Positions 1 through 15,430 of a stretch of DNA of 29,496 bases are shown here, one piece after another. This stretch comes from Thermovirgaceae bacterium. GTDB lineage: Bacteria; Synergistota; Synergistia; Synergistales; Thermovirgaceae. The notes below the pieces were generated by a model. The model was given only the letters and a program-made list of their open reading frames with translations, searched no databases and was not told where the DNA came from. Position numbers and translations under genes: made by a program. Each line of letters starts with the position of its first letter. Position 1 is the first letter of the stretch. The DNA lies in contig JBKHBH010000020.1 in NCBI GenBank assembly GCA_046542505.1, positions 1 to 29,496 of the forward strand, in the 5' to 3' direction.

Positions 1-615
1 GATCCCATACTTGACCCCTTCCCTTTCGGCCTTGCGGAATCGCTGGAAAGGTATGTCAGCTTCAGGAATCGGCACCCGTCGGTAAAAATGCTCATGGGCA
101 TCGGGAACCAGACGGAACTGGTCGAAGCCGATTCAACGGGGATCAATGCATTTCTGGCAGCCGTCTGTGAAGAGCTGTCCATTGAAGCGGTGCTGACGAC
201 CTCCGTCATATCCTGGGCGGCGGGGGCTGTGAAGGAATTTGACCTGGCCCGACGTCTCATGGCATGGGCAAAACGTGAAGGAAGTGTCCCGAAGTATGCC
301 GGTGCCGGACTCGTGACATTGCGTGATTTGCCCCATGAGATGTTTGCAGAGGAGGAATTGTTCCAGATGCACAAGGCGTTGCGGGACAAGAATTACAGGA
401 TTTTCGTGACGCCTCCGGTTCTGTGTGTCTTTAACCGTGACGTTTTCATAAAGAGTGAATCGGCGAAAGAGATTTGGGAACAGTTGAGTGATCTGGATCC
501 TTCTCATGCCTTTTATCTGGGCCGGGAGCTGGAAAAGGCCGAAACAGCCCTGAAACTCGGCAAGCGCTATGTCCAGGACCAGCCTTTGGACTGGGGGTAC
601 GCATCGAAATCATGA
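1..615 (+). CDS. Dihydropteroate synthase-like H4MPT biosynthesis protein (Orf20-type), 5'-truncated by window edge
   Basis: Frame 1 is open from base 1: DPILDPFPFGLAESLERY...MLMGIGNQTELVEADSTG and C-terminal HAFYLGRELEKAETALKLGKRYVQD, typical of Orf20/DHPS-like proteins of C1 clusters. The ATG at 88 is internal. Confidence 0.85.
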   Translation, partial: DPILDPFPFGLAESLERYVSFRNRHPSVKMLMGIGNQTELVEADSTGINAFLAAVCEELSIEAVLTTSVISWAAGAVKEFDLARRLMAWAKREGSVPKYAGAGLVTLRDLPHEMFAEEELFQMHKALRDKNYRIFVTPPVLCVFNRDVFIKSESAKEIWEQLSDLDPSHAFYLGRELEKAETALKLGKRYVQDQPLDWGYASKS

Positions 616-1172
616 TCATCGAGACGATATTAAGTACGCGGGATGAAAAGGGCATGCCGAATTTTGCTCCCATGGGAATTGAACAGACTCCCTCCGGCTG
701 TGTGACGGTCCGCCCTTTCAGGACAAGCCGGACCTGGCGAAATCTTTGTTCCGATTCTTTTGCCGTCGTGAACGTTGTCGAGCCGGCATTGCCTTTCGTT
801 TTGTCCGCGCTGGGGTCCCTGGACCTTCCGACCTTCCCGGCGAGGAAAATACCTTGCATGGTGCTCCAGGCGGCATCGCGATGGATGGAGCTTGAACTCG
901 CAGGCCGAAAACAGGATGAGCATCGGGGAAATTGCCTGTTCCGGGTCGTCCACGAAGAGGGACTCCGGTTTTTCCAGGGTCATAACAGGGCCAGGTGTGC
1001 CCTTGTCGAAACGGCAATTGCGGCCACCAGGATCCATGTATTCGGCAAGGACCCATTCTGGAGCGAGTTTTCCAGGGCTTGCACCCTGGTGGAAAAGACC
1101 GGTGGTGAAGAGGAAAAAGAGGCTTTGCTGATCCTGAAGAATTGGGCGGAGGGGTTCTGTGAAAGTTTGTGA
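612..1172 (+). CDS. DUF447 family protein (H4MPT cluster associated)
   Basis: MIIETILST..PNFAPMGI, PFRTSRTWRNL, HNRA..ALVETAIAATR, VEKTGG. ATGA overlap with the upstream gene. Confidence 0.8.
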   Translation: MIIETILSTRDEKGMPNFAPMGIEQTPSGCVTVRPFRTSRTWRNLCSDSFAVVNVVEPALPFVLSALGSLDLPTFPARKIPCMVLQAASRWMELELAGRKQDEHRGNCLFRVVHEEGLRFFQGHNRARCALVETAIAATRIHVFGKDPFWSEFSRACTLVEKTGGEEEKEALLILKNWAEGFCESL

Positions 1173-2148
1173 AGTGCACTCCCACTCGCGTTTACATCTC
1201 GGATTCCTGGACCTGCACGGAGGTCTCGGGAGGAAGTACGGAAGCATCGGAGTGGCTCTGGAAAAGCCGTGCATGGTTCTTTCCGCGTCAGAGTCCCCGT
1301 TCCTGGATGTCGAAGGCGATGACGCCGGAAGGGCCCGGGCGTATGCCGAGCGGTTCTACGCTCACTGCAATCTGCCGGAAGACAAACGCGCCCGATTGTC
1401 TTTGAAATCAGCGCTACCGGCGCATGTTGGACTCGGTTCGGGCACGCAGCTTGCTCTCACTCTGGGGACGGCGCTCAAAATTCTTCATGGATTTGAGTAC
1501 ACCACGGGGGAACTGGCCCTGATGATGGGCAGGGGCAAACGTTCCGGCGCGGGAATCGCCCTTTTCGACAAGGGAGGGTTAGTCCTGGACGGGGGACACG
1601 CGACAGGGCGCTCCAGGAATGTCCCTCCTGTCTTGTGGCAGGAAAAACTTCCTGGGGACTGGCTTTTTGTCGTGGCCATCCCTGATGCTCCCTGCGGCAA
1701 GAGCGGTGAAAAAGAGAACGGGGCCTTCAGGAATCTTCCGGAGCCATCCCCCGAGAGCGCCGGCCAGGTATGCCGGCATGTCCTGATGGGCCTGATTCCC
1801 GCAATACGGGAAAGGGACATCCAGGCCTTCGGCCGGTCTCTCACTGCCATTCAAAGAATCGTGGGCGACTGCTTTTCTCCCGCACAGTCCGGGCGTTTTG
1901 CCTGCCCCTTTTCGGAGAAAGTCATTTCCATGTTGCGTGAAGGAAATGCAGCCGGTGTCGGACAAAGCTCCTGGGGGCCCACGGTATATGGCCTGGTGGA
2001 GGGGAAAAGCGCAGCCGACGAATTGGCGGCCTGGGTGAAAAGGAAAGCCACTGGGCTTGGCAATGTCGAGGTCTTCGTGTCAGCGGCGGCAACGAGGGGC
2101 GCATGGTGGAAAATCGAACAGCAAAGGGGGAGCAGCCATGGAGATTAA
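1159..2148 (+). CDS. mptG: Beta-ribofuranosylaminobenzene 5'-phosphate (RFAP) synthase
   Basis: SRLHLGFLDL, GHMP-like HVGLGSGTQL, GRGKRSGAGIALF..GGLVLDGG, GQSSWGP. GTG start after GGAGG. Confidence 0.92.
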   Translation: MKVCEVHSHSRLHLGFLDLHGGLGRKYGSIGVALEKPCMVLSASESPFLDVEGDDAGRARAYAERFYAHCNLPEDKRARLSLKSALPAHVGLGSGTQLALTLGTALKILHGFEYTTGELALMMGRGKRSGAGIALFDKGGLVLDGGHATGRSRNVPPVLWQEKLPGDWLFVVAIPDAPCGKSGEKENGAFRNLPEPSPESAGQVCRHVLMGLIPAIRERDIQAFGRSLTAIQRIVGDCFSPAQSGRFACPFSEKVISMLREGNAAGVGQSSWGPTVYGLVEGKSAADELAAWVKRKATGLGNVEVFVSAAATRGAWWKIEQQRGSSHGD

Positions 2149-3046
2149 CGGGGTCGAGATAGCGGATACCTTTGCCGAGGCTTTCGGCATGTGGGCGACA
2201 CGGTTTTGCATTACCGCCGCCGATGAACATTGGCTGGAGGCTGCGGCAAAAAGCGTTACCGGATTCGCTACTTCCGTCATCGGCTGCGGGTGCGAAGCCG
2301 GTGTAGAAGGGATGGTCCCTGCCAAATCCACTCCGGACGGCCGTTTGGGAGTTCATGTTTTGCTCTTTGTGCCTTCGAGAAAGAATATGGAAAAACAACT
2401 GGTGGGACGAATCGGGCAGGCGGTCATGACTTGCCCCACTACGGCCTGCTTTTCCGCAATGGAAGGCAGTGAGAGAGTCCCTGTAGGGGCATCCCTCAGA
2501 TACTTCGGTGACACCTTTCAGGTAAGCAAGGTCGTTGACGGGCACAGGTACTGGCGTGTGCCCGTAATGGAGGGTGAATTCGTCATATCCGATACCTTCG
2601 GGATACAGAAAGGGGTCGGGGGAGGGAACTTCCTGATTGTCGCAAGGGACCCTGCTTCCGCGCTCGGCGCCGCAAGGGCTGCCGTGGAGGCGATGGAACC
2701 ATTGAAAGGAATCATCCTTCCCTTCCCGGGAGGCGTGGTCAGGAGCGGAAGCCAGGTAGGATCCAGATATTCCTTTCTGCCGGCGTCTACGAACGTGGCG
2801 TATTGTCCTACCCTGAAAGGCCTTGTCGGGACGGATTTGCCGGAAGAGGCGAACTCGGTCCTTGAAATCGTCATCGACGGTATTGATGGCCCTTCCGTGG
2901 AAGAAGCCATGAAAAGGGGGATACGCGCCGCCTGCATGGACGGCGTTCTGCAGATAACGGCGGGGAATTACGGAGGAAGTCTCGGAGAGCATCTTTTCCA
3001 TCTGCATTCCCTCCTGGAGGCTCAGGTCGACCCGCGGACACCGTGA
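2138..3046 (+). CDS. fhcD: Formylmethanofuran:tetrahydromethanopterin N-formyltransferase (Ftr/FhcD)
   Basis: MEINGVEIADTFAEAF, ATSVIGCGCEAG, TPDGR, CPTTACF, GGGNF, PFPGGVVRSGS, LEIVIDG, ITAGNYGG. Start moved to ATG 2138 (GGGGGAG RBS). Confidence 0.95.
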   Translation: MEINGVEIADTFAEAFGMWATRFCITAADEHWLEAAAKSVTGFATSVIGCGCEAGVEGMVPAKSTPDGRLGVHVLLFVPSRKNMEKQLVGRIGQAVMTCPTTACFSAMEGSERVPVGASLRYFGDTFQVSKVVDGHRYWRVPVMEGEFVISDTFGIQKGVGGGNFLIVARDPASALGAARAAVEAMEPLKGIILPFPGGVVRSGSQVGSRYSFLPASTNVAYCPTLKGLVGTDLPEEANSVLEIVIDGIDGPSVEEAMKRGIRAACMDGVLQITAGNYGGSLGEHLFHLHSLLEAQVDPRTP

Positions 3047-3094
3047 TGCGTCGCGGGGGAAAGAAGGATGAAAAATGTCTGTAGGTGATAGGCA

Positions 3095-3964
3095 ATGACG
3101 GAGAAAAGCCAGACTAAATATCTTCCGGCAGAAGAAACTCCATCGGAAGCGGTCTTTCTGGAGTACCTCCTCAAGGAACCGCTTCCCGTGGAAGCTCCGG
3201 CGCTGACGCCGGACAACATTCTGGGAAAAAGCGAAAAGGAAATCGGCAAGATACCGGTACTGGCAGGAAACAGATGGCAACCCCTCGGCGAGGTGTTCAA
3301 AGTGACCCGTCGGGGTGATGAAGCTCTCGTCATTTCAGGTGACCTGAAACACGTCAAGAGGATCGGGGAAAAGATGCGAGGAGGGCTTCTTGTTCTTAAG
3401 GGAAGCCCGGGCATGCATCTCGGTGAAAGCATGGGAAACGGAAAAATCCTTGTGGAGGGGGACCTCCCCGACTGGTGCTGCTGCAACATGCAGGGCGGAC
3501 TCGTCATGGTGAGGGGTGGCGCAGGCAACATGCTGGCTGCGGCTTTGCCTGGCGAGACGCGTGGCATGCGTGGCGGCGTCGTGATAGTGGAAGGAGATAC
3601 GGGAATCCGGACGGGAGAGGCCATGCGCCGTGGACTCATAGCCGTTGGTGGGGCGACGGGGGAATTTGCCGGGGCAAGGATGGTCGCAGGAACTTTGGCC
3701 GTCTTCGGGCGAATCGCCCGAAGGGCCGGAGGAGGTATGAAGCGCGGTACCATCATGGCTATTGGAGGAGTCGATGAATTGTTGCCTTCTTTCAGGAGGA
3801 GCTGCTCCTTCAGGAGCCCCTTTATAGAAATATATCTTAAAAAACTTCAATCCCTGGGCCTTCCGGTCGGGAAAGCCCTTTCAGGCGGGTTTTTCGCCCG
3901 CTGGTTGGGCGACGTGACCTCTTCCGTCGGGAAAGGGGAGATCCTGGTATATGAAGGCGCTTAA
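3095..3964 (+). CDS. fhcC: Formylmethanofuran dehydrogenase / formyltransferase-hydrolase subunit C (FwdC/FhcC)
   Basis: PVEAPALTPD N-terminus, GXGXG beta-helix repeats (IGEKMRGG, LGESMGNG, GMRGG, GEAMRRG, GGMKRGT) and C-terminal GD..GKGEIL. Confidence 0.92.
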   Translation: MTEKSQTKYLPAEETPSEAVFLEYLLKEPLPVEAPALTPDNILGKSEKEIGKIPVLAGNRWQPLGEVFKVTRRGDEALVISGDLKHVKRIGEKMRGGLLVLKGSPGMHLGESMGNGKILVEGDLPDWCCCNMQGGLVMVRGGAGNMLAAALPGETRGMRGGVVIVEGDTGIRTGEAMRRGLIAVGGATGEFAGARMVAGTLAVFGRIARRAGGGMKRGTIMAIGGVDELLPSFRRSCSFRSPFIEIYLKKLQSLGLPVGKALSGGFFARWLGDVTSSVGKGEILVYEGA

Positions 3965-4898
3965 CGAAAGGGCATCGCTTTTGGTGGATGAAATGATTCA
4001 AAGAGCTGAAGAGCTTGACGTAACGGTTCATGTGACCGGGGAAGGGGCACGGGTTATTGACGCGGGAGTCGAAGCATCCGGATCCCTCGAGGCGGGCCGG
4101 CTTTACGCCGAGGCTTGCATGAGCGGTCTCGGAAAAATCTCCTTTATCCACTACAGTGAAGGCGGTCTTGCCGTGCCGGGCCTGTCTGTTACGGTCGCAA
4201 AACCTGTTCTCGCCTGTTTGGCTTCACAGTATGCAGGCTGGCAGATCGCCGATGACGGCTACTTTGCCATGGTATCAGGCCCCGGGCGCATCCTCCGGGG
4301 AAAAGAACCCCTTTTGGAGGAACTCGAATATCGCGAAGAGACGGGCAAAGCCGTCCTGCTTCTTGAAAGCGACGAGCTTCCTCCGGGGAATGTCGTCCGG
4401 AAGGTGGCGGAGTCGTGCGGCGTCGTATCTGAATCGCTCTTCCTTGTCGTGGCGCCGACCCGTTCGGTCGTGGCGTCCGTACAGGTTGCGGCGCGTGTCG
4501 TGGAAACGGGCATGCACAAGATGCACGAATGCGGCTTCGATGTGACTTCCGTCATGACAGGATGGGGAGCCGTCCCCCTTCCGCCGGTGGGTTCAAATAC
4601 CCTGGAAGCCATGGGATGGACGAACGATGCCGTTTTGTACGGAGGAAGTGTCTGGTACGGTGTCCGGACCGACGACGATTCCATCCTGGAAGTGCTTGAA
4701 AAGCTTCCGTCGTCGGCGGCGAGAGATTTTGGAACGCCTTTTGCGAAGCTGTTCAAACAATATGACGGCGATTTTTACAAGATAGATCCTCTTTTGTTCA
4801 GCCCGGCGCGAATCATGGTCAACAACCTTTCGACGGGCAAGGTTTTTCACGCAGGAGAATTTGCCACCAAGATCCTGAAGGAGGAATGGGGGCTTTGA
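3951..4898 (+). CDS. mch: Methenyltetrahydromethanopterin cyclohydrolase
   Basis: IDAGV, ACLASQYAGW, SGPGR, APTRS..SVQVAARVVETGMHK, TNDAVLYGG, DFYKIDPLLFSPA. Confidence 0.96.
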   Translation: MKALNERASLLVDEMIQRAEELDVTVHVTGEGARVIDAGVEASGSLEAGRLYAEACMSGLGKISFIHYSEGGLAVPGLSVTVAKPVLACLASQYAGWQIADDGYFAMVSGPGRILRGKEPLLEELEYREETGKAVLLLESDELPPGNVVRKVAESCGVVSESLFLVVAPTRSVVASVQVAARVVETGMHKMHECGFDVTSVMTGWGAVPLPPVGSNTLEAMGWTNDAVLYGGSVWYGVRTDDDSILEVLEKLPSSAARDFGTPFAKLFKQYDGDFYKIDPLLFSPARIMVNNLSTGKVFHAGEFATKILKEEWGL

Positions 4899-5797
4899 GA
4901 GCAGCCATCCTCGGCAGAATGGACGGGTGGCATGTACAGTCACTGAGGCGGGCGCTTTCCGGCCGCGGGATAGAAAGTTCCTGCGTTGCCGCCACCCGCC
5001 TTGTTTCAAGATGTGCCACGGCCAAGCCTCCCTTAGAAGCGGCCGGCGAGGATCTGTCCGGCTGCGACCTGCTTTTTGTCCGCTCTGTTCCTGGTGGTTC
5101 ACTTGAGCAGGTCATCTATCGCGTGGATTCTCTTCACAGGCTTCAGGGACTGGGCGTTCGGGTGATCAATTCCGCTGCGGTGATAGAGCGGACGGTGGAC
5201 AAGCTGTACACTCTTTCCGTACTTGAGGATGCGGGCCTTCCAGTTCCCGCCACCGTAGCCTGCGAACGGTCTGAGCAGGCCATGGAAGCTTTTCTTTGTC
5301 TCGGAGGCGACGTGGTGGTCAAACCCCTTTTCGGTTCGGAAGGCAGGGGCATGCTTCGCGTATCCGACCCCGATCTTGCCTACAGGGTTTTTTCCGCCCT
5401 TGAGCAGAATCGATACATCTATTACCTTCAGGAATACCTGCCGCATGAAAACAGGGATTTTCGCGTTTTCGTGGTCTCGGGAAAATCCCTGGGCGTCATG
5501 CAGAGGGATGGAACGGAATGGCGTTCCAATGTGGCTCGCGGGGCCCGCGTAGCCCGGGCCGAAGCGGTGCCGGAGATAGAAAGCCTCGCTCTTGAGGCCG
5601 CCGCCCTGTTTGATGCGGATTATCTCGGCGTTGACGTCATCAGAGTTGAAGACGGCCGCGTCATGCTGCTTGAAATCAACGGGATTCCCGGCTGGCGAGG
5701 GTTTCTCAAGGCCACGGGAATCAACGCCGGAGAGGTGCTGGTCGAAAGTGTTCTCAACGAATCATGCTGCAGGCGAAAAAGGAAGGGTTTTTTCTGA
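4895..5797 (+). CDS. RimK-family ATP-grasp glutamate ligase (Orf5/MptN-like)
   Basis: GSLEQVIYRVD, IERTVDK, KPLFGSEGRG, YLQEY, WRSNVARG, EINGIPGW. TTG at 4895 is better spaced from AAGGAGG than ATG 4886. Confidence 0.88.
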   Translation: MRAAILGRMDGWHVQSLRRALSGRGIESSCVAATRLVSRCATAKPPLEAAGEDLSGCDLLFVRSVPGGSLEQVIYRVDSLHRLQGLGVRVINSAAVIERTVDKLYTLSVLEDAGLPVPATVACERSEQAMEAFLCLGGDVVVKPLFGSEGRGMLRVSDPDLAYRVFSALEQNRYIYYLQEYLPHENRDFRVFVVSGKSLGVMQRDGTEWRSNVARGARVARAEAVPEIESLALEAAALFDADYLGVDVIRVEDGRVMLLEINGIPGWRGFLKATGINAGEVLVESVLNESCCRRKRKGFF

Positions 5798-6668
5798 GCG
5801 GGACGTCCTCTGGGCGGCGCAGATCGCCTGCCAGCTTGAGGTGTCCGCTGACAAACCGGGCAATGTCACCTATGGCAAACCATTCGAGGATGTCTCCGTC
5901 GAGCAGTTTCTGGCGAGCGCCTTTGCGATCGGGCCGGCTTTTTCAAAGGCGTGTTCCTCAAGGACGGGACAACTTGTTCTCGAGGCTGTACGAGATACGA
6001 AAATCCTTGCCGGTTTCAACACAAATCTTGGCATCGTGCTTCTGCTGGCGCCGCTGGCAAAGGCGGCCCTCCGCAAGGAGGAAGGGACCCTGCGGGAACG
6101 CCTGTCCCTGGTGCTCAGGGAGACTGATGAACGAGACACGCAGGATGTCTATGAAGCCATCCGGCTGGCATCTCCGGGCGGGTTGAAAGAGATGCCCCGC
6201 TACGGGGTTATGGGCCCGATACCGAAAATCGCTTTGATGGAAGCCATGGCCGAAGCCTCGGCGTGGGATTCCATTGCAGCCGAGTATTGCAGTGATTTCA
6301 AGATCGTCTTCACCTTTGGACTTCCCGCTTTGGAACAGGCAAGGCACAGAATACCCCGAATGAGGGAGGCCGTGACCCATACCTTTCTTACGCTTCTCTC
6401 AGAAGTGCCCGACACGTTGATTTCGAGGAAGAACACCCCTGAAGCCGCACAGAAGGTTTCCCTGATGGCACGGGATGTGCTTGAGGCCGGAAGCGTCATG
6501 AGCAGAAACGGACGCAGCATGATCCATGAAATGGACCTTTTTCTGCGGGACGACCGAAATGCACTGAACCCGGGAACGACGGCGGACCTTCTTGCCGCCG
6601 TCTTGTTTATTGCCGTTCTCGATGTTCTCGACAGGCGAGATCTTCCTGAAACGCTCGCAGGATGGTAA
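5748..6668 (+). CDS. CitG-like triphosphoribosyl-dephospho-CoA synthase family protein (Orf7-type)
   Basis: ACQLEVSADKPGNV, NTNLGIVLL, YEAIRLASPGGL, PDTLISRK, NPGTTADL. Probable GTG start at 5748 after GAGGTG. Confidence 0.85.
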   Translation: MFSTNHAAGEKGRVFSERDVLWAAQIACQLEVSADKPGNVTYGKPFEDVSVEQFLASAFAIGPAFSKACSSRTGQLVLEAVRDTKILAGFNTNLGIVLLLAPLAKAALRKEEGTLRERLSLVLRETDERDTQDVYEAIRLASPGGLKEMPRYGVMGPIPKIALMEAMAEASAWDSIAAEYCSDFKIVFTFGLPALEQARHRIPRMREAVTHTFLTLLSEVPDTLISRKNTPEAAQKVSLMARDVLEAGSVMSRNGRSMIHEMDLFLRDDRNALNPGTTADLLAAVLFIAVLDVLDRRDLPETLAGW

Positions 6669-7792
6669 CTGTCATGGCGGGTGACACCAGGCAGTTTCCT
6701 GAAAAAGTCCTGATCTACGAGCATTTTTCGGCCGGCGGGATGGATCGGGGAAAGGATTCGGAGTCTTTGGCCGCCGAGGGCTTGTGCATGGCCGGTGCCC
6801 TGTTCTCCCATTTTATGAAGTCAGAAATGACAGTCCCTTGTCTTTTGCTCAGGAAAGAACTGCTTCATGCCATTCCCGATGATCAAAGGAAGTACATCCT
6901 CCCGGCTTTTCCCGGAAAAGCCGAAGAGCTCCTGTTTGAAGAATGCCATGGCGGAATGACTGTCGTCTTGATCGCTCCGGAGACAGGAGGGCTTTCGACG
7001 CGTTTGGCGAAGGATGTGCAAAAAGCCGGTGGATCCCTTCTCGGATCCGACCCTGAGACGATTTCTCTTGCATCGAACAAGGCATGGCTTCTGCGACGTC
7101 TTGTAGATGGAGGGGTTCCCTGTGTCCCCTCGACCGTCGTGTCGTGCACCGAAGACGCGCGTGAAGCGGCCGATAAGGCCGGGTATCCCGTGGTAACAAA
7201 GCCGCTGAGAGGGACCGGTGGAGAAGGCAGCGCACTGTTGAAATCCGAAAAGGAACTTGAAAAATATTTCAGGTCAGTGGAGGGCAATCATGCAGGACAG
7301 TTGGTCCTGCAGCCTTTCGTGGAAGGATTTCCTGCCAGCCTTTCCATACTTGCCGGCAGGGGGGGCGCCCTGCGTCTCGTCTCGGTGAACCGGCAGGATA
7401 TTGTGCAGGAAGCGATTGAGGGAAACCCGCCTCTTGACGGTTTCCGCTATGCTGGAGGAATGACAGGCCTGTCCGAAAAAAATGACCCCCGCATAAGGGT
7501 TACTGGAATGAGGGGCCTCGAGCGGCTTGCCGAAAAGACAGTCGGAATTCTGGGCGGCCTTTTGGGGTATGCCGGAATCGACCTGATCATGACCGAAAAC
7601 GGCCCTCTTGTCCTCGAGGTCAACCCGCGAATGACGACGCCTCTGGCGGTTCTCGCCCGGCATGTCGGGTGGAATATGGCCGACGTCCTGGTTGATGCCT
7701 GCGTGTCCGGAAAAATCCCCGAAAAGCTGGCGGTCCCCGTGACGGCTTTTGTAAAGGAGAATATGACATGGCCGACGCCCCCGAAAAAATGA
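6662..7792 (+). CDS. mfnD: ATP-grasp tyramine/tyrosine--L-glutamate ligase-like protein
   Basis: LIYEHFSAGG, SLAAEGLCM, LIAPETGG, KP..GTGGEG, SVNRQ, GYAGIDL, LEVNPRMTT. Lies beside mfnF and mfnE. Confidence 0.8.
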   Translation: MVTVMAGDTRQFPEKVLIYEHFSAGGMDRGKDSESLAAEGLCMAGALFSHFMKSEMTVPCLLLRKELLHAIPDDQRKYILPAFPGKAEELLFEECHGGMTVVLIAPETGGLSTRLAKDVQKAGGSLLGSDPETISLASNKAWLLRRLVDGGVPCVPSTVVSCTEDAREAADKAGYPVVTKPLRGTGGEGSALLKSEKELEKYFRSVEGNHAGQLVLQPFVEGFPASLSILAGRGGALRLVSVNRQDIVQEAIEGNPPLDGFRYAGGMTGLSEKNDPRIRVTGMRGLERLAEKTVGILGGLLGYAGIDLIMTENGPLVLEVNPRMTTPLAVLARHVGWNMADVLVDACVSGKIPEKLAVPVTAFVKENMTWPTPPKK

Positions 7793-8808
7793 TAATCGGA
7801 TGGGACATTGGAGGTGTCGGAAGCAAGTGCGCGGCCGTCACGCCGGATGCCGGTTTCGTTGCAGCGAAAAGCGAACCCTTCGAAATATGGAAAGGACCGC
7901 AAGAGCTGGGTTGCGTCCTGAAACGGCTCGCCTCCTGTTTTACCCCGTCTGAAGCCTCGATGGGCATAACCATGACCGCCGAGCTTTCGGACTGTTTTTC
8001 GTCAAAACGGGAAGGAGTGCGTTTTGTCCTTGAAGCCTTCGAGAGGACGTTTCCCGATACGCCCATGTGGTGCCTCTCGGCGGGCGGGAAATGGGTGCGG
8101 CTTGCGGAGGCCGTGAGGGTCCCTGACGAATTTGCGGCGACGAACTGGGTGGCTGCGGCACAGGAAATGGCGAGGCTTTTGGGTGACGGCGTCTGGGTGG
8201 ATGTGGGCAGCACGACGACGGATATCATCCCTTTCAGAAACGGGATTTCCTGCGCCCTGGGAAGAACCGATACGGACCGGTTGCGCTTCGGGGAACTCCT
8301 TTATACAGGAGTCATCCGTTCGAACCCCAATACGATGGCCCGATGGGTGCCCTTAAAGGGCAACTGGCACCGTGTGGCCGATGAATATTTCACCGTCATG
8401 GCGGATTGTTATCTGTTATTGGGTGAGATAAAAGCCGAAGAATATGCCATCAGACCGCCTGACGGAGGTCCGGTCAGCGTCGAAGGCGCCTCACGTCGCC
8501 TTGCGAGGCTGGTTTGCGCCGATCCGGACATGGTCTTTTTGGATGATCTTTTCCTCCTGGCGAAATACCTTCGCGAACGCCAGATTGAAAGGATCGTCGA
8601 AGCACTCTGCCAGGTGAGCAGCCGCGAAAACGTGAAACCTGTTGTCGTGGCGACGGGAATCGGGAAGTTTCTGGCCGAAACGGCGGCCGAAAGACTCGGT
8701 TTCTCAACCATTGATGCCGGGTCGGTGATACCTGAAGACTGCCGGGGGCAGTTTCCCGCCTGGGCGGCCGCGCGGGGTGTGCTTTTGTCGAAAGGAGAGG
8801 ACATGTGA
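7768..8808 (+). CDS. mfnF: Hydantoinase/oxoprolinase-like methanofuran biosynthesis coupling enzyme (MfnF/Orf9-type)
   Basis: IGWDIGG, TMTAELSDCF..KREGV, ATNW, VDVGSTTTDIIP, GELLYTG, RRLARLVCAD. Confidence 0.88.
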   Translation: MADAPEKMIIGWDIGGVGSKCAAVTPDAGFVAAKSEPFEIWKGPQELGCVLKRLASCFTPSEASMGITMTAELSDCFSSKREGVRFVLEAFERTFPDTPMWCLSAGGKWVRLAEAVRVPDEFAATNWVAAAQEMARLLGDGVWVDVGSTTTDIIPFRNGISCALGRTDTDRLRFGELLYTGVIRSNPNTMARWVPLKGNWHRVADEYFTVMADCYLLLGEIKAEEYAIRPPDGGPVSVEGASRRLARLVCADPDMVFLDDLFLLAKYLRERQIERIVEALCQVSSRENVKPVVVATGIGKFLAETAAERLGFSTIDAGSVIPEDCRGQFPAWAAARGVLLSKGEDM

Positions 8809-8809
8809 C

Positions 8810-9451
8810 GTGAAGGTCGAGGTAGTCCTAAAATTTGGTGGAAGCCTCGAGCGTAACCCGACCTTCCCGGAGATTTGCAAATGGACAGGTCGTTCTCTTC
8901 GGAGCGAAAAGGCCGTTATCATGCCTGGTGGAGGAAGGTTCGCCGACGTCGTTCGTGTCTGTGACAAACAGTGGGGGTTGAACGCGGCGACATCGCACTG
9001 GATGGCCGTCCTCGCCATGGAGCAGTTTGGTTATGTATTGGCCGAAAGAATCCCCGATTCCGTCACCTCGCGAACGGAAACAGACATTGCCCGGGCCCAT
9101 GCCGCAGGAATTCTCCCGGTTTTCCTGCCCGTTGCCTGGCTTCGAAAACAGAGGGATGTCCCTGAAAGCTGGGATGTGAGCTCCGACAGTATCGCCTGCC
9201 TTCTTGCCGCAGGGCTGAGAGCTTCGAGACTGGTACTCCTCAAGGACAGCCTTCCCGAGGAAGCACGCAGCGGGGAAGATCAAACCGAGGACGTCTTGCG
9301 GAACCTTGCGTTGGGTGGGTGGGTGGACCCCATGTTCACACGTTTCCTGTCTTCCTGGCGGGGCGAAGCCTGGCTTTGTGACGGAACGAAAGGCCTGGCC
9401 CTGGGGACCGAAGTCAGATGCGGGGGGAACAGATGTCTTCGCCTTCAATGA
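8810..9451 (+). CDS. mfnE: Amino-acid-kinase family 5-(aminomethyl)-3-furanmethanol phosphate kinase-like protein
   Basis: VLKFGGSL, PGGGRFADVVR, HWMAVLAMEQFG, SWDVSSDSIA. GTG at 8810 follows AAGGAGAGG. Confidence 0.85.
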   Translation: MKVEVVLKFGGSLERNPTFPEICKWTGRSLRSEKAVIMPGGGRFADVVRVCDKQWGLNAATSHWMAVLAMEQFGYVLAERIPDSVTSRTETDIARAHAAGILPVFLPVAWLRKQRDVPESWDVSSDSIACLLAAGLRASRLVLLKDSLPEEARSGEDQTEDVLRNLALGGWVDPMFTRFLSSWRGEAWLCDGTKGLALGTEVRCGGNRCLRLQ

Positions 9452-10169
9452 GTCTTGCGATCTCTTTCGTCCGTTCAAAAGAGAACCTGCCCGAACGCCC
9501 GCCCTCACACAGGGCTCCCCTGAATCCCAGAAAATGAGGTTTCAGGCTCAGAAGACGGGCAATGTCACCGGGCCCTAGCGATCCGGCCAGTGCCGAAAAG
9601 AGACCGGCTTCGGAGCATGATGCGAGGAAGACCTCGATTTTTTTGAAGGAAAGAACGTCGGGAAGCCTCCTCCCCGACATTTTGTCGAAGGTGTCAAGCA
9701 GGCACCCGGCGGCGCCCGCCGAAGCGGCGGCAGCGGGAATTTCCAGAGGATCAACGCCGCTGAAGTCTTTTGCATCAGCATAGGCCCCGGCGACCAGGGC
9801 CGTTTTTGGACAGTGGTCCGCCAGGGCCGAAGCCGTGGCTTGCAGTAAAAGAAAGACCTCTTCCGTCGTTTTTGTTCCCAAAAGGCCCACCTTGATGATT
9901 GTCGCACCGGCTTTTGCCGCCCCGAGGGCCGCAAGGGCGGCTGTTCCGGGAAGGTAAGGCATGTCGCCTATGGCTGCACTAAGATGAATTTCTTTTGGGA
10001 TAACTTGTCGCACCGATGCGATAACCTTGGGTGATGCTGCTCCGAGGGCTCCCTCGGCGGGGTTCTTGACGTCTATTACGGAAGCCCCGGCATACAAGGC
10101 TTCCTTCGATTCCTCTGCCGAAAGCACCGTTGCAAGGAAGGCGGTTTTCTCGGGAAAGAGAGTTTTCAT
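9414..10169 (-). CDS. mfnB: (5-formylfuran-3-yl)methyl phosphate synthase (DUF556)
   Basis: GASVIDVKNPAEGALGA, SAAIGD, IKVGL, YAD, LLDTFDK, ALAGSL, GFRGALC. Confidence 0.93.
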   Translation of the reverse strand: MKTLFPEKTAFLATVLSAEESKEALYAGASVIDVKNPAEGALGAASPKVIASVRQVIPKEIHLSAAIGDMPYLPGTAALAALGAAKAGATIIKVGLLGTKTTEEVFLLLQATASALADHCPKTALVAGAYADAKDFSGVDPLEIPAAAASAGAAGCLLDTFDKMSGRRLPDVLSFKKIEVFLASCSEAGLFSALAGSLGPGDIARLLSLKPHFLGFRGALCEGGRSGRFSFERTKEIARLIEGEDICSPRI

Positions 10170-10906
10170 ACCTCAATCTCCGAAATGTCTTTTCTCGTCA
10201 GCCATTGTTCGTGCAGCGCACTTGCCGTAAGTATGCCCGCTACGCCCGCCCCTTTGAGTCCGGCGAGTTCATCATGTGAGCGGAGACCTCCGCCGGCAAA
10301 CAGCCTGATTTCAGGTGCGGCCCGAAAGCAGCGTCGCAAAAGGTCTGTGGGCAGCCCCTTCCTGGTTCCCACACCGTCCAGGGTGAGAAGTATGATATCC
10401 CTCCAGCCTTTTTGGGCCAAAAGATCGACGCCTTCTTCAACGGGGCTGTTGCGAAAGGGGGAGTTTTCAGGCGTCAAAAGGACGCCGTTTTTTATGTCGA
10501 GGCTGAAAACCATTCGGTCTGTCGGGCAGTCTGAGGTAATTTTGTAGAAATCCCCGGGGGTCTCAAGCGTTTCGGACCCGATGACGGCCTTGCAGTTCGG
10601 CACATTTTCGAGGAGAAAGAGTACTTGTTCCACCGTTCCGGTGCCTGCGTCTATCCAGAGCGTAACGCCGGTCGTCTTCTGCAGGTCTTTCAGGATGGAC
10701 AGGTTGTCCCCATCTTTTTGCAGGGCGTTCAGGTCCGCGACGTACATATCCTTGTTTGCCGTAATTCCCAGAAGGATCTCGGCGACGTGCAGAGGATCAG
10801 GGGAATCTATTATCGCGCTTTTTATCGGACGGTACCGGTCTCTTTCGCCCTTGTACCCGTGAACGACCACTCCGTCCAGAATGTCCAAAACAGGAATGAT
10901 TTGCAT
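10166..10906 (-). CDS. HisA/HisF-related TIM-barrel protein of C1 clusters (Orf17-type)
   Basis: MQIIPVLDILDGVVVHG..GERDRYRP, YVADLNAL, IGSETL, FSLD, VGT..G, AGGGLR, ASALH. ATG 10906 is 10 nt from GGAGG. Confidence 0.85.
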   Translation of the reverse strand: MQIIPVLDILDGVVVHGYKGERDRYRPIKSAIIDSPDPLHVAEILLGITANKDMYVADLNALQKDGDNLSILKDLQKTTGVTLWIDAGTGTVEQVLFLLENVPNCKAVIGSETLETPGDFYKITSDCPTDRMVFSLDIKNGVLLTPENSPFRNSPVEEGVDLLAQKGWRDIILLTLDGVGTRKGLPTDLLRRCFRAAPEIRLFAGGGLRSHDELAGLKGAGVAGILTASALHEQWLTRKDISEIEV

Positions 10907-10957
10907 CGTTGTCAAACCTCCGGAAGCATTTGTATCTTTTGCAATGGTGCCTGCCCT

Positions 10958-11362
10958 TCAGTGTTTGACCGCTTCAGGAGAAAAGCCCGGGCCCGCAGCT
11001 TCGGCGTCCTCACGGTGGATGACAACGGAAGACGTAGCCGTTTCCCATACCTGGACGGAGTACAGAGAACAGTTCTCGTGGCTGATTCTTCCGTCGATCT
11101 GGTTCCAGATCCAGAGCGCGATGCGTTCGGCCGTCGGCTGGGAGATCACATCGTTCAGATAGGCATGGTCCAGGTATGACAGGGCGTGTGTCTTGACGAG
11201 ATCCTTCAGGGCGAGAAAATCCATGACCATGCCTTCTGCACCGGGCATTCCCTCAAGGGTGATCTCGAGCCTGTAGGTATGCCCGTGCAAGGCTTCGCAT
11301 TTGCCGTGGTACTGCTCAAGCTTGTGGGCCGCGTCAAAGGTGAATTCCTTTTTCAGAAACAT
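10958..11362 (-). CDS. queD: 6-pyruvoyltetrahydropterin synthase / QueD family (COG0720) protein with hybrid CExxHGH motif
   Basis: FTFDAAH, GKCEALHGHTY, GMVMDF, LDHAYLND, PTAERIA, VWET. ATG 11362. Confidence 0.88.
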   Translation of the reverse strand: MFLKKEFTFDAAHKLEQYHGKCEALHGHTYRLEITLEGMPGAEGMVMDFLALKDLVKTHALSYLDHAYLNDVISQPTAERIALWIWNQIDGRISHENCSLYSVQVWETATSSVVIHREDAEAAGPGFSPEAVKH

Positions 11363-11549: not shown

Positions 11550-12320
11550 ATGCTCGGTGCCATTGCCGGAGATGTAATCGGTTCAGTCTACGAGAACAAC
11601 CCCGTGAAAGGGCTAGAATTTCCCCTTTTTTCAGAGGATAGCCGGTTCACAGACGATACGGTTCTCACTGTCGCGCTGGCGGATTGTCTGCTTCATGGGG
11701 GGGACTATGGTGAATACATGAGCCTTTACGCGAAACGTTTCCCCGATGCGGGGTTCAGCCGGGCCACCCTGTCCAGGCTCCTCGGAGGGGGCACAGGCCT
11801 GCCGGATAGCTACGGCAACGGGGCCGCCATGCGTTCAAGTCCCATAGGGTGGGCTTTCGATGATGAAAACAAGATAGTTGAGGAAGCGGAAAAGAGTGCC
11901 CGTCCTACCCACAGGCATGATGAAGGAATAAAAGGAGCACGGGCTGTGGCTTTGGGAGTTTTCTGGGCGCGCAAAGGAGTTTCCGGTGAGGAGTTCTTGA
12001 GTCTGATGTCCGAGTGGACCGGTTACGAACTAAAACGGTCCCTGGAAGAGATTCGCCCTTCGCACCGTTTCGACGCCACGGCCCCGGGAAGCGTTCCGGA
12101 AGCCATACGCGCCTTTTTCGAAGCTGAAGGGTTCGAGGAAGCCGTATGTTACGCTGTTTCCCTCGGGGGTGACGCTGATACGCAGGCCTGTATCGCCGGC
12201 GCCCTGGCCGAAGCCCGATTCAAAACCGTGCCGGAGCAGATTGCAAGTGAAGTACGGAAACGTCTTCCTGCTGAATTTCTTGAAATTGTTGATGCCTTTG
12301 AAAAAAAATGGGGTCCCTGA
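11550..12320 (+). CDS. ADP-ribosylglycohydrolase (DraG/ARH family)
   Basis: MLGAIAGDVIGS, FTDDT, SYGNGAAMR, GGDADT. Start moved to ATG 11550. Confidence 0.9.
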   Translation: MLGAIAGDVIGSVYENNPVKGLEFPLFSEDSRFTDDTVLTVALADCLLHGGDYGEYMSLYAKRFPDAGFSRATLSRLLGGGTGLPDSYGNGAAMRSSPIGWAFDDENKIVEEAEKSARPTHRHDEGIKGARAVALGVFWARKGVSGEEFLSLMSEWTGYELKRSLEEIRPSHRFDATAPGSVPEAIRAFFEAEGFEEAVCYAVSLGGDADTQACIAGALAEARFKTVPEQIASEVRKRLPAEFLEIVDAFEKKWGP

Positions 12321-12331
12321 GGGAACGGATC

Positions 12332-12371
12332 TTGTGCAATATAGTGTTACGACTTATCATAAACGTAATAC
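12332..12371 (+). promoter_or_regulatory. Sigma70-like promoter (TTGTGC-N17-TATCAT) overlapped by a NikR-like operator GTGTTAC-N14-GTAATAC
   Basis: -35 at 12332-12337 and -10 at 12355-12360. Palindromic arms at 12344-12350 and 12365-12371 span 28 bp with one mismatch. Confidence 0.6.
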
Positions 12372-12397
12372 ATATTTTCCTGTCTGGAGGGGTTCCT

Positions 12398-13537
12398 GTG
12401 AAAGGTAACGTTTTTCTCAGGCGTACAGTTGTCGCGCTTTTTTTGACAGTGATATTGTTTTTGCTTTCAGGAGGGCAGTCACTTGCCAAAGGGACGACGG
12501 TGGAGATTACCGATGCATGGGGACGCCAGGTCGCGGTACCTGCGGAAGTGAACCACGTCATCTGCTCCGGCTCTGGTTGTCTGAGGTACCTGGTGTACCT
12601 GCAGGGTCTTGACCTTGTCGTCGGTGTCGACGATATGGAAAAATCCCGCTCCAAGTTTGATGCCAGACCCTATTTCCTTGCCCATCCGGAACTTCGTGAC
12701 AAACCACTTTTTGGTGAATTCAGAGGACATGATAACCCTGAGCTTATCGTAAACCTTGATCCCCCGCCCGATGTCATTTTCAAGACCTACGGAAAAATGG
12801 GATACGATCCCGATGAGCTTCAGGCGAAAACGGGAATACCCGTGGTGGTTCTGAACTACGGGAACCTTACCTATGGAAGAAAGGACATGTACGAGGGCCT
12901 TTCGATCATGGGAGAGGTTACCGGAAAGACAAAGCGGGCAGAGGAAGTCATCGGATTTTTTGACAGTGCCATTGAAGACCTTGACCAGCGAACGGCCAAT
13001 ATCCCCGGTGAGGAACGCCCTACCTGCTACGTCGGCGGGATCGCCCACAAGGGGCCTCACGGTTTTCCCTCGACGGAACCGTCATACCCTCCTTTCGTTT
13101 TTACCAATGCAAAACATGTGGTGCAGGAGGGGGAAAAGGGGGGAAATAGCCTCCAGCAGGTGACTGTCTCGCGGGAAAAGATCCTGGAATGGGATCCGGA
13201 GTATGTTTTCGTCGACCTGTCCACTCTGCAGGCGGGAAAAGAGGCGGGAGCGATGGACCAATTGCAGAATGAAACATGCTATCAGGTCCTTTCCGCGGTG
13301 CAGGAGGGGAAGGTATACGGTGTCCTCCCCTTCAACTGGTACACGACGAATTACGGTTCCGTCCTTGCCAATGCCTATTTTGTGGGCAAGGTTCTTTATC
13401 CGGAGCGGTTTGAAGATGTGGACCCCGCCGAAAAGGCTGACAAGATCTATGAGTTCCTTGTGGGAAAACCGGTTTTCAAAGATATGAATGACCTCTTTGA
13501 GGACCTGGCCTACAAGAAAATAGACCTGGATGCCTGA
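12398..13537 (+). CDS. ABC transporter substrate-binding protein (FecB/BtuF, TroA-like helical backbone)
   Basis: Signal peptide, ITDAWGRQV..P, VVGVD, PDVI, VSREKILEWDPE. GTG 12398 after GGAGG. Confidence 0.88.
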   Translation: MKGNVFLRRTVVALFLTVILFLLSGGQSLAKGTTVEITDAWGRQVAVPAEVNHVICSGSGCLRYLVYLQGLDLVVGVDDMEKSRSKFDARPYFLAHPELRDKPLFGEFRGHDNPELIVNLDPPPDVIFKTYGKMGYDPDELQAKTGIPVVVLNYGNLTYGRKDMYEGLSIMGEVTGKTKRAEEVIGFFDSAIEDLDQRTANIPGEERPTCYVGGIAHKGPHGFPSTEPSYPPFVFTNAKHVVQEGEKGGNSLQQVTVSREKILEWDPEYVFVDLSTLQAGKEAGAMDQLQNETCYQVLSAVQEGKVYGVLPFNWYTTNYGSVLANAYFVGKVLYPERFEDVDPAEKADKIYEFLVGKPVFKDMNDLFEDLAYKKIDLDA

Positions 13538-13610
13538 ACAGGAGAACGCTGAAGAGGAACTTCGCTTAAAACCGGAAGTAAAGGCCCGTTCCCCAAAACG
13601 GAGGTATGAC

Positions 13611-14681
13611 ATGCATCTCGAAGAAGGTTCCGTTCCTGAAGCATATACGAAATACATCAGCGGAAAGATAGCCTTTTTGGTTATCGGTCTGGGCGTGCTT
13701 GGCGTGCTGGTGGTGTTTTCCGTTTCCGCAGGCTCCATGCGCATCCCGGCGATGGACGTCCTCGGGACGCTGATGTTTCGGCACCTCTCCGATCGACTTG
13801 ATGCGGTTGTGTTCAACATCAGGCTGCCGCAAGTACTGACCGCCGTTATTGCCGGTGCAGGGCTGTCAGTTGCGGGAGCGGTCATGCAGGCTGTTTTGGG
13901 GAACCCCCTCGCTTCCCCTTATACTCTCGGCATATCTCAGGCAGCCGCCTTTGGGGCTGCCTTTTCCGTCATGATCATGGGGTCTGGAGTCATGCTCAGT
14001 TCCGCCGCGGACGCCGTTAAAGTGGTGCAGCCGGGAATCACGGCGATTGCGGCCTTTATCGCCAGCGTGGCGGCAACGGGGACGGTCATTCTGGTGGCGC
14101 ATGTCAAAAAAGGTGCCCCTGAAGTTATGGTGCTTGCGGGGGTGGCGCTGGGGTCGCTATTTACGGCGGGAACGATGTTTCTCCAGTATTTCGCCGATGA
14201 CGTTCAGCTGGCGGCCATGGTGTTCTGGACTTTCGGCGACGTGGCCAGGACCGACTGGAAAGAACTGGGAGTCATGACGACTGCGACAGGTGTCACCATC
14301 CTCTTTTTTATCTTCAACGCCTGGAACTTCAATGCCGTGGACGCCGGTGACGAGACGGCTCTCAGCCTGGGGGTGCATGTCCGCCGCGTGAGGTTTTCCG
14401 GAATGTTCATAGCGTCACTGGTGACGGCCGTTATTATTTCATTTGTCGGTATCATCGGCTTCGTGGGACTGGTCTGCCCTCACATGGTCAGGCGGATCAT
14501 TGGCGACGACTACCGTTTCCTGATTCCAGGTTCCTGCATCATGGGGGGAATCCTTCTTCTGGCCGCCGATACCGCAGCGAGGCTTGCCATGGCGCCGAAG
14601 GTGCTTCCTGTGGCTGTTCTCACATCCTTTGTCGGTGCGCCGATGTTTCTTTACCTGATCATCAAGGGGTACAGAAAATGA
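13611..14681 (+). CDS. ABC transporter permease (FecCD/BtuC family)
   Basis: IRLPQ, MQ..LGNPLASPYTLGIS, GDETALSLGV, GIIGFVGLVCPH. ATG 13611 after GGAGG. Confidence 0.92.
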   Translation: MHLEEGSVPEAYTKYISGKIAFLVIGLGVLGVLVVFSVSAGSMRIPAMDVLGTLMFRHLSDRLDAVVFNIRLPQVLTAVIAGAGLSVAGAVMQAVLGNPLASPYTLGISQAAAFGAAFSVMIMGSGVMLSSAADAVKVVQPGITAIAAFIASVAATGTVILVAHVKKGAPEVMVLAGVALGSLFTAGTMFLQYFADDVQLAAMVFWTFGDVARTDWKELGVMTTATGVTILFFIFNAWNFNAVDAGDETALSLGVHVRRVRFSGMFIASLVTAVIISFVGIIGFVGLVCPHMVRRIIGDDYRFLIPGSCIMGGILLLAADTAARLAMAPKVLPVAVLTSFVGAPMFLYLIIKGYRK

Positions 14682-15430
14682 TTCTTTCCGTGAACAACGT
14701 CCGGTTCAGCTACAAGAGCAGGCCTGTCTTGAACAGGGTAAGCTTTGCCCTCAAGAGAAACGAGCTTTTGGCTATACTTGGCCCTAACGGTGTAGGCAAG
14801 ACGACCCTTCTCAAATGTATTAACGCCGTGTTGAGACCCCAGGGTGGAGCCATTCTTGTAGCCGACAGGGATTTGCTTTCCCTGTCGAGAATGGAAATCG
14901 CGCGGTATATTGCTTATGTGGCCCAGAAAACGGAAGCAGGCCGCCTCACGGCCTTCGATGCAATTCTTTTGGGCCGGAGGCCCCACATTCGCTGGAAAGT
15001 AGGCGGGAATGATCTGAAGAAAGTTGATGCCATTATCAAAACCTTCGGGTTGGAAGACCTCTCTTTGCGGTTTCTCGATGAAATGAGCGGCGGGGAACTG
15101 CAAAAAGTCAGTATCGCCCGCGCCCTCGTCCAGGAGCCCGAGGTCCTGCTTCTGGACGAACCTACGAACAGTCTTGACCTGAAAAACCAGCAGGAAATCC
15201 TCGAAACAATCCGCCATATCGTGACAGGACACGGCATGGCGGCCGTTATGACCATGCACGATCTCAATTCGGCGCTGCGGTTCGCCGACAAGGCGCTGTT
15301 TATGAAAAACGGGGAAATTTATGCGGCGTCGGAGAGAGCGGAGATTACCCCCGAGGTCGTCGAAGCGGTATACGGGCTGCCCGTCACCATCGAACAAGTC
15401 TGCGGACACCCGGTCGTCATGCCGCTATGA
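14678..15430 (+). CDS. ABC transporter ATP-binding protein (FepC/BtuD-like)
   Basis: Walker A GPNGVGKT, MSGGE signature, LLLDEPT, HDLN. ATGA overlap. Confidence 0.94.
   Translation: MILSVNNVRFSYKSRPVLNRVSFALKRNELLAILGPNGVGKTTLLKCINAVLRPQGGAILVADRDLLSLSRMEIARYIAYVAQKTEAGRLTAFDAILLGRRPHIRWKVGGNDLKKVDAIIKTFGLEDLSLRFLDEMSGGELQKVSIARALVQEPEVLLLDEPTNSLDLKNQQEILETIRHIVTGHGMAAVMTMHDLNSALRFADKALFMKNGEIYAASERAEITPEVVEAVYGLPVTIEQVCGHPVVMPL

Follow-up and report, generated by a model that had tools for sequence, protein, structure and literature searches.

A CExxHGH-type PTPS as a candidate shared pterin step for folate and tetrahydromethanopterin synthesis in Synergistales

The window examined here, a stretch of 29,496 nucleotides from a Thermovirgaceae bacterium of the order Synergistales (GenBank assembly GCA_046542505.1, contig JBKHBH010000020.1, positions 1 to 29,496), corresponds to contig C38 of a genome referred to below as G000. 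It carries a gene of the PTPS/COG0720 family at the edge of a gene island for tetrahydromethanopterin (H4MPT) and methylofuran. With a probability of roughly 0.6, this gene encodes the resident PTPS-III-type (CExxHGH) enzyme of the organism, which would serve as a shared trunk step for folate and H4MPT and would not be specific to methanopterin. The pterin half of bacterial H4MPT has been taken for granted as borrowed folate intermediates, and to our knowledge there is no gene-by-gene assignment of its pterin supply. The locus offers a testable scheme, with an MptA-HPPK fusion in the island, a CExxHGH COG0720 enzyme at its edge or outside it, and no aldolase. The gene also illustrates clearly how annotation pipelines will assign the name QueD within a lineage without the queuosine pathway.

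The gene in question is intact and is placed as follows.

10958..11362, minus strand: PTPS/COG0720 gene, intact open reading frame (ORF) with ATG start and TGA stop, 134 amino acids

The Pfam family PF01242 matches the protein with 120.5 bits (cut-off 22.4), residues 3-117 covering profile positions 2-120 of 121. An earlier, sequence-only reading of the window had pointed to the motif C-E-A-L-H-G-H in this protein. The motif is present as K-C22-E23-A-L-H26-G-H28 and is no chance feature, since 43 of 43 Synergistales copies taken from the fetched loci read G-K-C-E-x-L-H-G-H. Further conserved residues are H13, D65-H66 and E107. The histidines H13, H26 and H28 are presumably zinc-binding, and C22, D65-H66 and E107 are taken by us to be catalytic. 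The protein carries both the CxxxHGH motif of PTPS-I (QueD) and the ExxHGH motif of PTPS-III. According to excerpts of the article by Zallot et al. (2016; PMC5041015), CxxxHGH marks QueD, ExxHGH marks PTPS-III and CExxHGH marks hybrids. The nearest named relatives of the protein come from metagenome-assembled genomes (MAGs) of Synergistales and Thermovirgaceae, at 66-70% identity. A longer form of 148 amino acids, starting at the upstream TTG 11404, is disfavoured, and relatives align from M1 of the 134-residue form. The PTPS-related domain model TIGR03112 was considered as a curated family for the island-linked copies and rejected; the window protein reaches 26.6 bits where 69.35 are required, and the planctomycete paralogues described below give no match.

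The case for a shared step comes from the pterin genes of the whole genome, a Synergistales MAG of 2.14 Mb in 142 contigs with 93.5% completeness. It contains exactly one COG0720 gene. The sequence-only reading had proposed looking for the absence of FolB and MptD, and neither of these, nor FolE, gave a match in this 93.5% complete genome (MptD being searched for as PF04038). TIGR00295, which we take to be the model for MptB, yields only partial matches of 28-35 bits in this genome, and only two methanogen controls score above its cut-off. Genes for later folate steps are in place, FolP and FolK together on contig C31 and FolC on contig C97, so that the genome combines these three with no detected FolB or MptD, as in genomes that rely on PTPS-III. 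Altogether two HPPKs are encoded, beside one FolP and one MptH-like synthase. One of the HPPKs is fused to the cyclohydrolase.

C140:8256-9752 (L009:949-2445), outside the window, between FhcA and the AfpA-like gene: HPPK + GCHY-1 (GCH-IB) fusion, 498 amino acids

This fusion is the sole GCH-IB match of the genome, and its cyclohydrolase domain reaches 290.6 bits on the MptA equivalog TIGR00294 (cut-off 220) and 150.5 bits on FolE2 (cut-off 215). The island encodes the first step of the pterin branch (the MptA domain) and the later steps (the HPPK domain and the MptH-like synthase), with no step in between and no aldolase found. Because MptA, HPPK and the MptH-like synthase are present and nothing connects them, a PTPS-III-type shortcut is the only visible route, and PTPS is, as far as gene content can tell, the only visible source of 6-hydroxymethyl-dihydropterin in the genome. 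Since folate would be made as well (FolP, FolK, FolC) and there is a single COG0720 gene, PTPS would have to serve both cofactors. The earlier proposal that this enzyme replaces MptB/MptD or FolB for H4MPT therefore holds insofar as no other route is visible, but its restriction to H4MPT does not, the step being apparently shared with folate.

In the proposed scheme, the MptA-type domain, the only GTP cyclohydrolase of the genome, would open GTP to a dihydroneopterin phosphate. PTPS would then cleave the side chain of this compound (which may be the triphosphate, the cyclic phosphate or the monophosphate) to 6-hydroxymethyl-7,8-dihydropterin, and would replace FolB/MptD and perhaps MptB. FolK, encoded beside FolP, would pyrophosphorylate 6-hydroxymethyl-dihydropterin for folate, and the HPPK domain of the island fusion would pyrophosphorylate the same pterin for the MptH-like synthase, which would join it with the product of RFAP synthase in the H4MPT branch. 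If PTPS does take the MptA product directly, the known archaeal route would be shortened by two steps. The place of PTPS at the head of a HisA-like/MfnB-like gene pair would be a relic of an old supercluster of pterin genes and the H4MPT/methylofuran island.

The scheme has parallels in known systems and departs from each of them. PTPS-III, the FolB bypass of Plasmodium and various bacteria, shares the ExxHGH motif, the lack of a detected FolB and, in relatives, the clustering with GCH-IB, HPPK and FolP; unlike PTPS-III, the window protein also keeps the QueD cysteine, and its partner cyclohydrolase is an MptA-type domain fused to HPPK in an H4MPT island. PTPS-I/III hybrids have the identical CExxHGH signature and work in both the folate and the queuosine pathway (Phillips et al., 2012, cited after PMC5041015), whereas genes of de novo queuosine synthesis were not found here (QueE was not searched for) and almost none occur in the order, so that the second duty would be H4MPT. 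Set beside the archaeal PTPS-III members linked to H4MPT and the MptA-MptB-MptD-MptE route, the genome likewise shows an MptA-type cyclohydrolase, no MptD found and a COG0720 candidate for the 6-hydroxymethyl-dihydropterin step. Unlike in the archaeal case, the host is a bacterium, a bacterial-type HPPK fused to MptA replaces MptE, no MptB-like gene was found and the enzyme would be shared with folate.

An archaeal precedent is already on record. According to excerpts of PMC5041015, certain Archaea employ PTPS-III members in H4MPT synthesis (Zallot et al., 2016), although the reference number given with that sentence seems to lead to another paper in the article's own table. The claim that a linkage between such an enzyme and H4MPT was undescribed was thus too strong; what may be new here is the bacterial case of a COG0720 candidate for the H4MPT pterin, the archaeal link having been stated in that article. 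A literature search on COG0720 or 6-pyruvoyl genes together with methanopterin yielded no description of a bacterial linkage, although it did not extend to older papers on the islands, where an earlier mention is possible. Genes for H4MPT and methanofuran, Afp and fwdD have been noted in Synergistetes (Chistoserdova 2016, PMC5020050, in part), and genes of this kind, including fwd, mch and ftr, have likewise been noted in Acetomicrobium (excerpt of PMC6025917).

The distribution of the gene was surveyed across 151 Synergistales genomes, G000 included. PTPS occurs in 125/151 and GCH-IB (GCHY-1) in 124/151, mch in 15/151 and MfnB in 6/151. FolB is found in 19/151, with none in the 18 genomes of family f1, and QueC scores above its cut-off in 1/151. 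In 95 of 122 genomes a GCH-IB gene shares a contig with PTPS and is no more than 3 kb from it, as computed from coordinates; the 122 are those with a high-scoring PTPS, three genomes with low-scoring matches alone being excluded. These figures speak against PTPS as an H4MPT-specific member of the mfnB unit, as the sequence-only reading had it. The partner cyclohydrolases are of two types: standalone copies pass the FolE2 equivalog (4/4 tested), and HPPK-fused copies pass the MptA equivalog (4/4, including that of G000). True FolP follows PTPS directly in G093, G030, G024, G033 and G049. A PTPS tree of 41 rows follows the families and places the window copy with island-free copies of its own genus (support 97/88), and the four island-linked copies need at least 2 label changes in it. 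Because of its wide spread, its pairing with GCH-IB and FolP, the CExxHGH motif in all 43 copies examined and a tree that follows taxonomy, PTPS is best read as the resident, vertically inherited, folate-type COG0720 gene of the order. A mobile module was also considered, in which the island-linked copies of PTPS or of HPPK-MptA would form clades of their own; this is not supported, 2 and 4 label changes being needed, respectively. Some genomes of families f3, f4 and f10 have a second, divergent COG0720-like gene of about 41-44 bits (57.5 in G010) in ORFs of about 175-250 amino acids, examples being G090:C51, G031:C14, G146:C41 and G138:C1:2381184.

The genes around PTPS in the window are listed below from the start of the stretch.

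1..615, plus strand: dihydropteroate-synthase-like protein, MptH-like, C-terminal part (TIGR00284)
612..1172, plus strand: DUF447 protein (PF04289 + PF20766)
1159..2148, plus strand: beta-RFAP synthase, MptG-like
2057..3046 and 3095..3964 (span 2057..3964), plus strand: fhcD and fhcC, formyltransferase and subunit C of the formyltransferase/hydrolase complex
3951..4898, plus strand: methenyl-H4MPT cyclohydrolase Mch (TIGR03120, above cut-off)
4886..5797, plus strand: MptN-like ATP-grasp glutamate ligase (orf5-like)
5592..6668, plus strand: CitG-like (orf7-like) triphosphoribosyl-dephospho-CoA synthase homologue
6662..7792, plus strand: ATP-grasp gene, orf19-like, weakly MfnD-like
7768..8808, plus strand: H4MPT-linked C1 transfer pathway protein, MfnF-like (TIGR03123, above cut-off)
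8777..9451, plus strand: amino-acid-kinase family gene, MfnE-like (orf22-like), convergent with the MfnB-like gene
9414..10169, minus strand: MfnB-like (orfY-like) 4-HFC-P synthase homologue (PF04476, 225.8 bits)
10166..10915, minus strand: HisA/HisF-related gene, orf20-like (PF00977, 106 bits; TIGR00734, 129 bits, below cut-off)
11550..12320, plus strand: ADP-ribosylglycohydrolase-family gene, divergent from PTPS
12308..15430, plus strand: ABC importer with Peripla_BP_2 binding protein, BtuC-like permease and ATPase

The plus-strand island genes converge on the MfnB-like/HisA-like/PTPS block. The genome carries mch, fhcABCD, RFAP synthase and genes of the orf5, orf7, orf19, orf20, orf21, orf22 and orfY types, the content of a bacterial H4MPT/methylofuran C1 island. 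Contig C140 reads, in order, MtdB-like, ATP-grasp, FwdD, FhcB, FhcA, the HPPK-MptA fusion and AfpA-like, and then breaks off within the MptH-like gene, of which it has the N-terminal part. Because a relative, G068, has the gene order of C140 and of the window on a single contig, C140 very probably abuts the start of the window.

That PTPS stands first in a co-directional unit with the HisA-like gene and mfnB is borne out by the spacing. The likelier start of the HisA-like gene, ATG 10906 preceded by GGAGG, lies 51 nt past the PTPS stop (the alternative, TTG 10915, lies 42 nt past it); the HisA-like stop and the MfnB-like start overlap by 4 nt; and the minus strand has no predicted terminator-like site in the gap from PTPS to the HisA-like gene. 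The three genes may be co-transcribed. The locus was matched in 6 DNA sequencing runs and in no RNA run. The order PTPS-HisA-MfnB recurs in G068, G088 and G049, with FolP inserted in G049. The contigs of G049 concerned, C45 and C95, group with family f1 in both the PTPS and the HPPK-MptA trees though the genome is filed under f5. Since these contigs behave as family-f1 DNA, the four cases of the trio may represent one lineage.

The position of PTPS was compared in the 15 mch-positive Synergistales genomes. It lies at the far end of the island in four (G000, G068, G088, G049). In two, a PTPS-FolP pair lies about 3.6 kb before the MtdB-like gene (G033 by tblastn, G055 by coordinates). In eight, PTPS is at a distance of over 0.5 Mb or on a different contig (G007, G017, G008, G018, G028, G036, G044, G144), and in one (G027) no PTPS match was found. 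PTPS is therefore near the island in 6/15 and is not a universal island member. The expectation that its synteny would be conserved in related C1 islands holds for the genomes in which the trio recurs and fails for the eight in which PTPS is off the island. By comparison, 13/15 have HPPK-MptA on the contig of mch, at a distance of about 5-6.5 kb, the exceptions being G000 and G144, where contig ends split the two. The order MtdB-ATPgrasp-FwdD-FhcB-FhcA-HPPK_MptA-AfpA-MptH-DUF447-RFAPsyn-fhcD-fhcC-mch-MptN-CitG recurs in families f1, f5, f8 and f9; in G008, no tblastn match to AfpA-like was obtained. The HPPK-MptA fusion persists in many island-free genomes.

How PTPS came to its place is suggested by the island-free congeners G029 (L060) and G057 (L061), in which the MtdB-like gene is followed by HPPK-MptA and then by a convergent PTPS, with the same ABC transporter beside it. 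The arrangement resembles a scar left when an island-bearing ancestor underwent two deletions, and does not resemble two insertions. An insertion of the island between a resident HPPK-MptA and PTPS was considered and rejected, loss fitting better, because four families share the order MtdB-like, ATP-grasp, FwdD, FhcB, FhcA ahead of HPPK-MptA and because the island-free congeners keep MtdB-like adjoining HPPK-MptA. In the HPPK-MptA tree, the family-f1 copies and the G049 copy form one clade (100/99), and island-free lineages stand on long stems of 0.71 (the G029/G057 congeners) and 0.5, which would fit relaxed or changed constraint after loss of the island.

An enzyme dedicated to methanopterin, which belongs to the mfnB operon, arrived with the island and is specialised for H4MPT, would account for the tightly spaced co-directional trio headed by PTPS and for its recurrence in G068, G088 and, with FolP inserted, G049. 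It is highly improbable, as the window copy is the sole COG0720 gene in a genome with FolP, FolK and FolC and no FolB found, groups with the PTPS of island-free congeners and has the same position as in those genomes, next to the same ABC transporter. Nor does it gain from an apparent second copy in G068. Two PTPS loci in that genome, one in the island and one resident, were considered and rejected; the contig with the second copy, C51, matches the genome of another species, G051, at 99.8% identity over 11.9 kb. C51 (L054) carries the island-free version of the locus and is near-identical to G051 C2 (L068) although the two are assigned to different genera, and is probably a binning contaminant.

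A second explanation holds that PTPS is a PTPS-III for folate only, that its adjacency to HisA/MfnB is a historical accident, and that the H4MPT pterin comes from an unrecognised island enzyme or that the island no longer makes the cofactor. The far wider spread of PTPS than of mch or MfnB, the tree that follows taxonomy without an island-linked clade, the common PTPS-FolP and PTPS-GCH-IB pairs, and the eight mch-positive genomes with PTPS away from the island all agree with it, and the island does contain genes of unknown role (DUF447, CitG-like, HisA-like). The island's own HPPK domain and MptH-like synthase, however, both need 6-hydroxymethyl-dihydropterin; the genome search brought up no further candidate enzyme; the island genes are intact frames above curated cut-offs; and H4MPT clusters of planctomycetes include a CExxHGH paralogue, as described below. 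A folate-only role is thus unlikely, though it deserves to be kept in mind.

Several points weigh against the reading of PTPS as a shared PTPS-III-type enzyme. With 142 contigs and 93.5% completeness, FolB, MptD and MptB are not found rather than proven absent. If the fused domain yields a 2',3'-cyclic phosphate like archaeal MptA, PTPS would have to use this compound without an MptB-like step. As PTPS is away from the island in 8/15 mch-positive genomes, linkage to the island is not required. The cysteine is kept in 43/43 copies though the order is nearly without QueC, and a pure PTPS-III reading leaves it unexplained. Lastly, the protein passes the NCBIfam QueD equivalog TIGR03367, with 100.6 bits against a cut-off of 89.25, and its closest solved structures are the QueD chains 2oba (65 bits) and 4ntm (63 bits).

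The last two points would suit a genuine QueD that makes 6-carboxy-tetrahydropterin for preQ0 and queuosine. The two structures, QueD of P. aeruginosa and E. coli, are the best sequence matches in the structural database, and H13, H26, H28, C22, D65-H66 and E107 align with their counterparts in both chains; TGT is also present in the genome. On the other side, QueD has Gly (KCGRLHGH) at the position of Glu23 of the window protein, and the genomic context of QueD was not found here. The sequence-only reading had seen no queC, queE or queF near PTPS, which is correct, and genome-wide QueF gave no match and QueC only weak N-terminal PP-loop matches of 19-33 bits, at least some of which belong to LarE-like genes (QueE was not searched for). 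QueC above cut-off in one genome of the order stands against PTPS in 125, and TGT alone fits salvage. Since the cysteine is kept in all 43 copies in an order with a single QueC above cut-off, CExxHGH is no predictor of a queuosine role here. To judge from gene content and motif, it is very unlikely that PTPS functions as QueD in this organism, and almost certainly it does not. Because the protein passes the TIGR03367 cut-off, it can be expected to be named queD automatically, as had been foreseen.

A second phylum provides a comparison. In Planctomycetota, mch is present in 12/201 genomes, and these 12 have MfnB (12/12), QueC (12/12) and in part FolB (6/12). Each of the 12 carries two or more COG0720 genes, among them one copy of 97-126 bits and one longer copy of 72-87 bits that reads C-E-R-[LV]-H-G-H in 12/12 and passes no specific NCBIfam model. 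In 9/12 the CitG-like orf7 gene is immediately followed by the longer copy, and in G351, G279 and G334 this copy lies inside the order mch-orf5-orf7-PTPS-SDR-MptH-like-PabB-like. When the G334 copy was used as query, the 12 best of the 201 genomes (44-100% identity) were exactly the 12 mch-positive ones, which are kin and so give no independent statistic; 36 further Planctomycetota genomes match at no more than 40% identity. A physical link between a CExxHGH COG0720 enzyme and H4MPT biosynthesis genes thus exists in a second phylum as well. The planctomycete paralogue shares with the window protein the CExxHGH motif and the physical link to H4MPT genes. It differs in its length (151-178 amino acids), an insertion and 24-39% identity over partial alignments, and in that its genomes carry a QueD-like copy as well, along with QueC and, in half of them, FolB. 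It supports the general idea of the sequence-only reading more than the window does, and it is a second, independent test case.

Taken further, CExxHGH COG0720 enzymes could be the general bacterial pterin step of H4MPT, converting the MptA product, be it cyclic phosphate or monophosphate, directly to 6-hydroxymethyl-dihydropterin without MptB or MptD. Synergistales would then have one shared enzyme in an ancestral supercluster (MtdB ... HPPK-MptA ... PTPS) and planctomycetes a dedicated long-form paralogue, and the retained cysteine would serve this chemistry and not queuosine. This extension is tentative, and we consider it somewhat doubtful at present.

Some observations concern neighbouring genes. 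In the planctomycete clusters, an SDR gene (L094:10260-11042, L095:4425-5240, L096:8180-8962) comes directly after the CExxHGH paralogue and before the MptH-like and PabB-like genes, and its best specific similarity is to pteridine reductase, below cut-off. Because planctomycetes have been reported to be without Afp/DmrA (PMC5020050, in part), this SDR is a candidate dihydromethanopterin reductase. In the mch-negative genome G024 of family f5 (L107), HPPK-MptA, an AfpA-like flavoprotein, PTPS and FolP are co-directional, an Afp-type reductase being kept with folate genes. The ABC importer beside PTPS in the window flanks PTPS across family f1 whether the island is present or not, and has below-cut-off matches to models of putative F420-0 and B12 transporters. 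The ADP-ribosylglycohydrolase gene is found in the island-bearing loci of G000, G068, G088 and G049 and gives no match in the island-free G029, G057, L010, L012 and L013; it may be an island member or be involved in cofactor synthesis.

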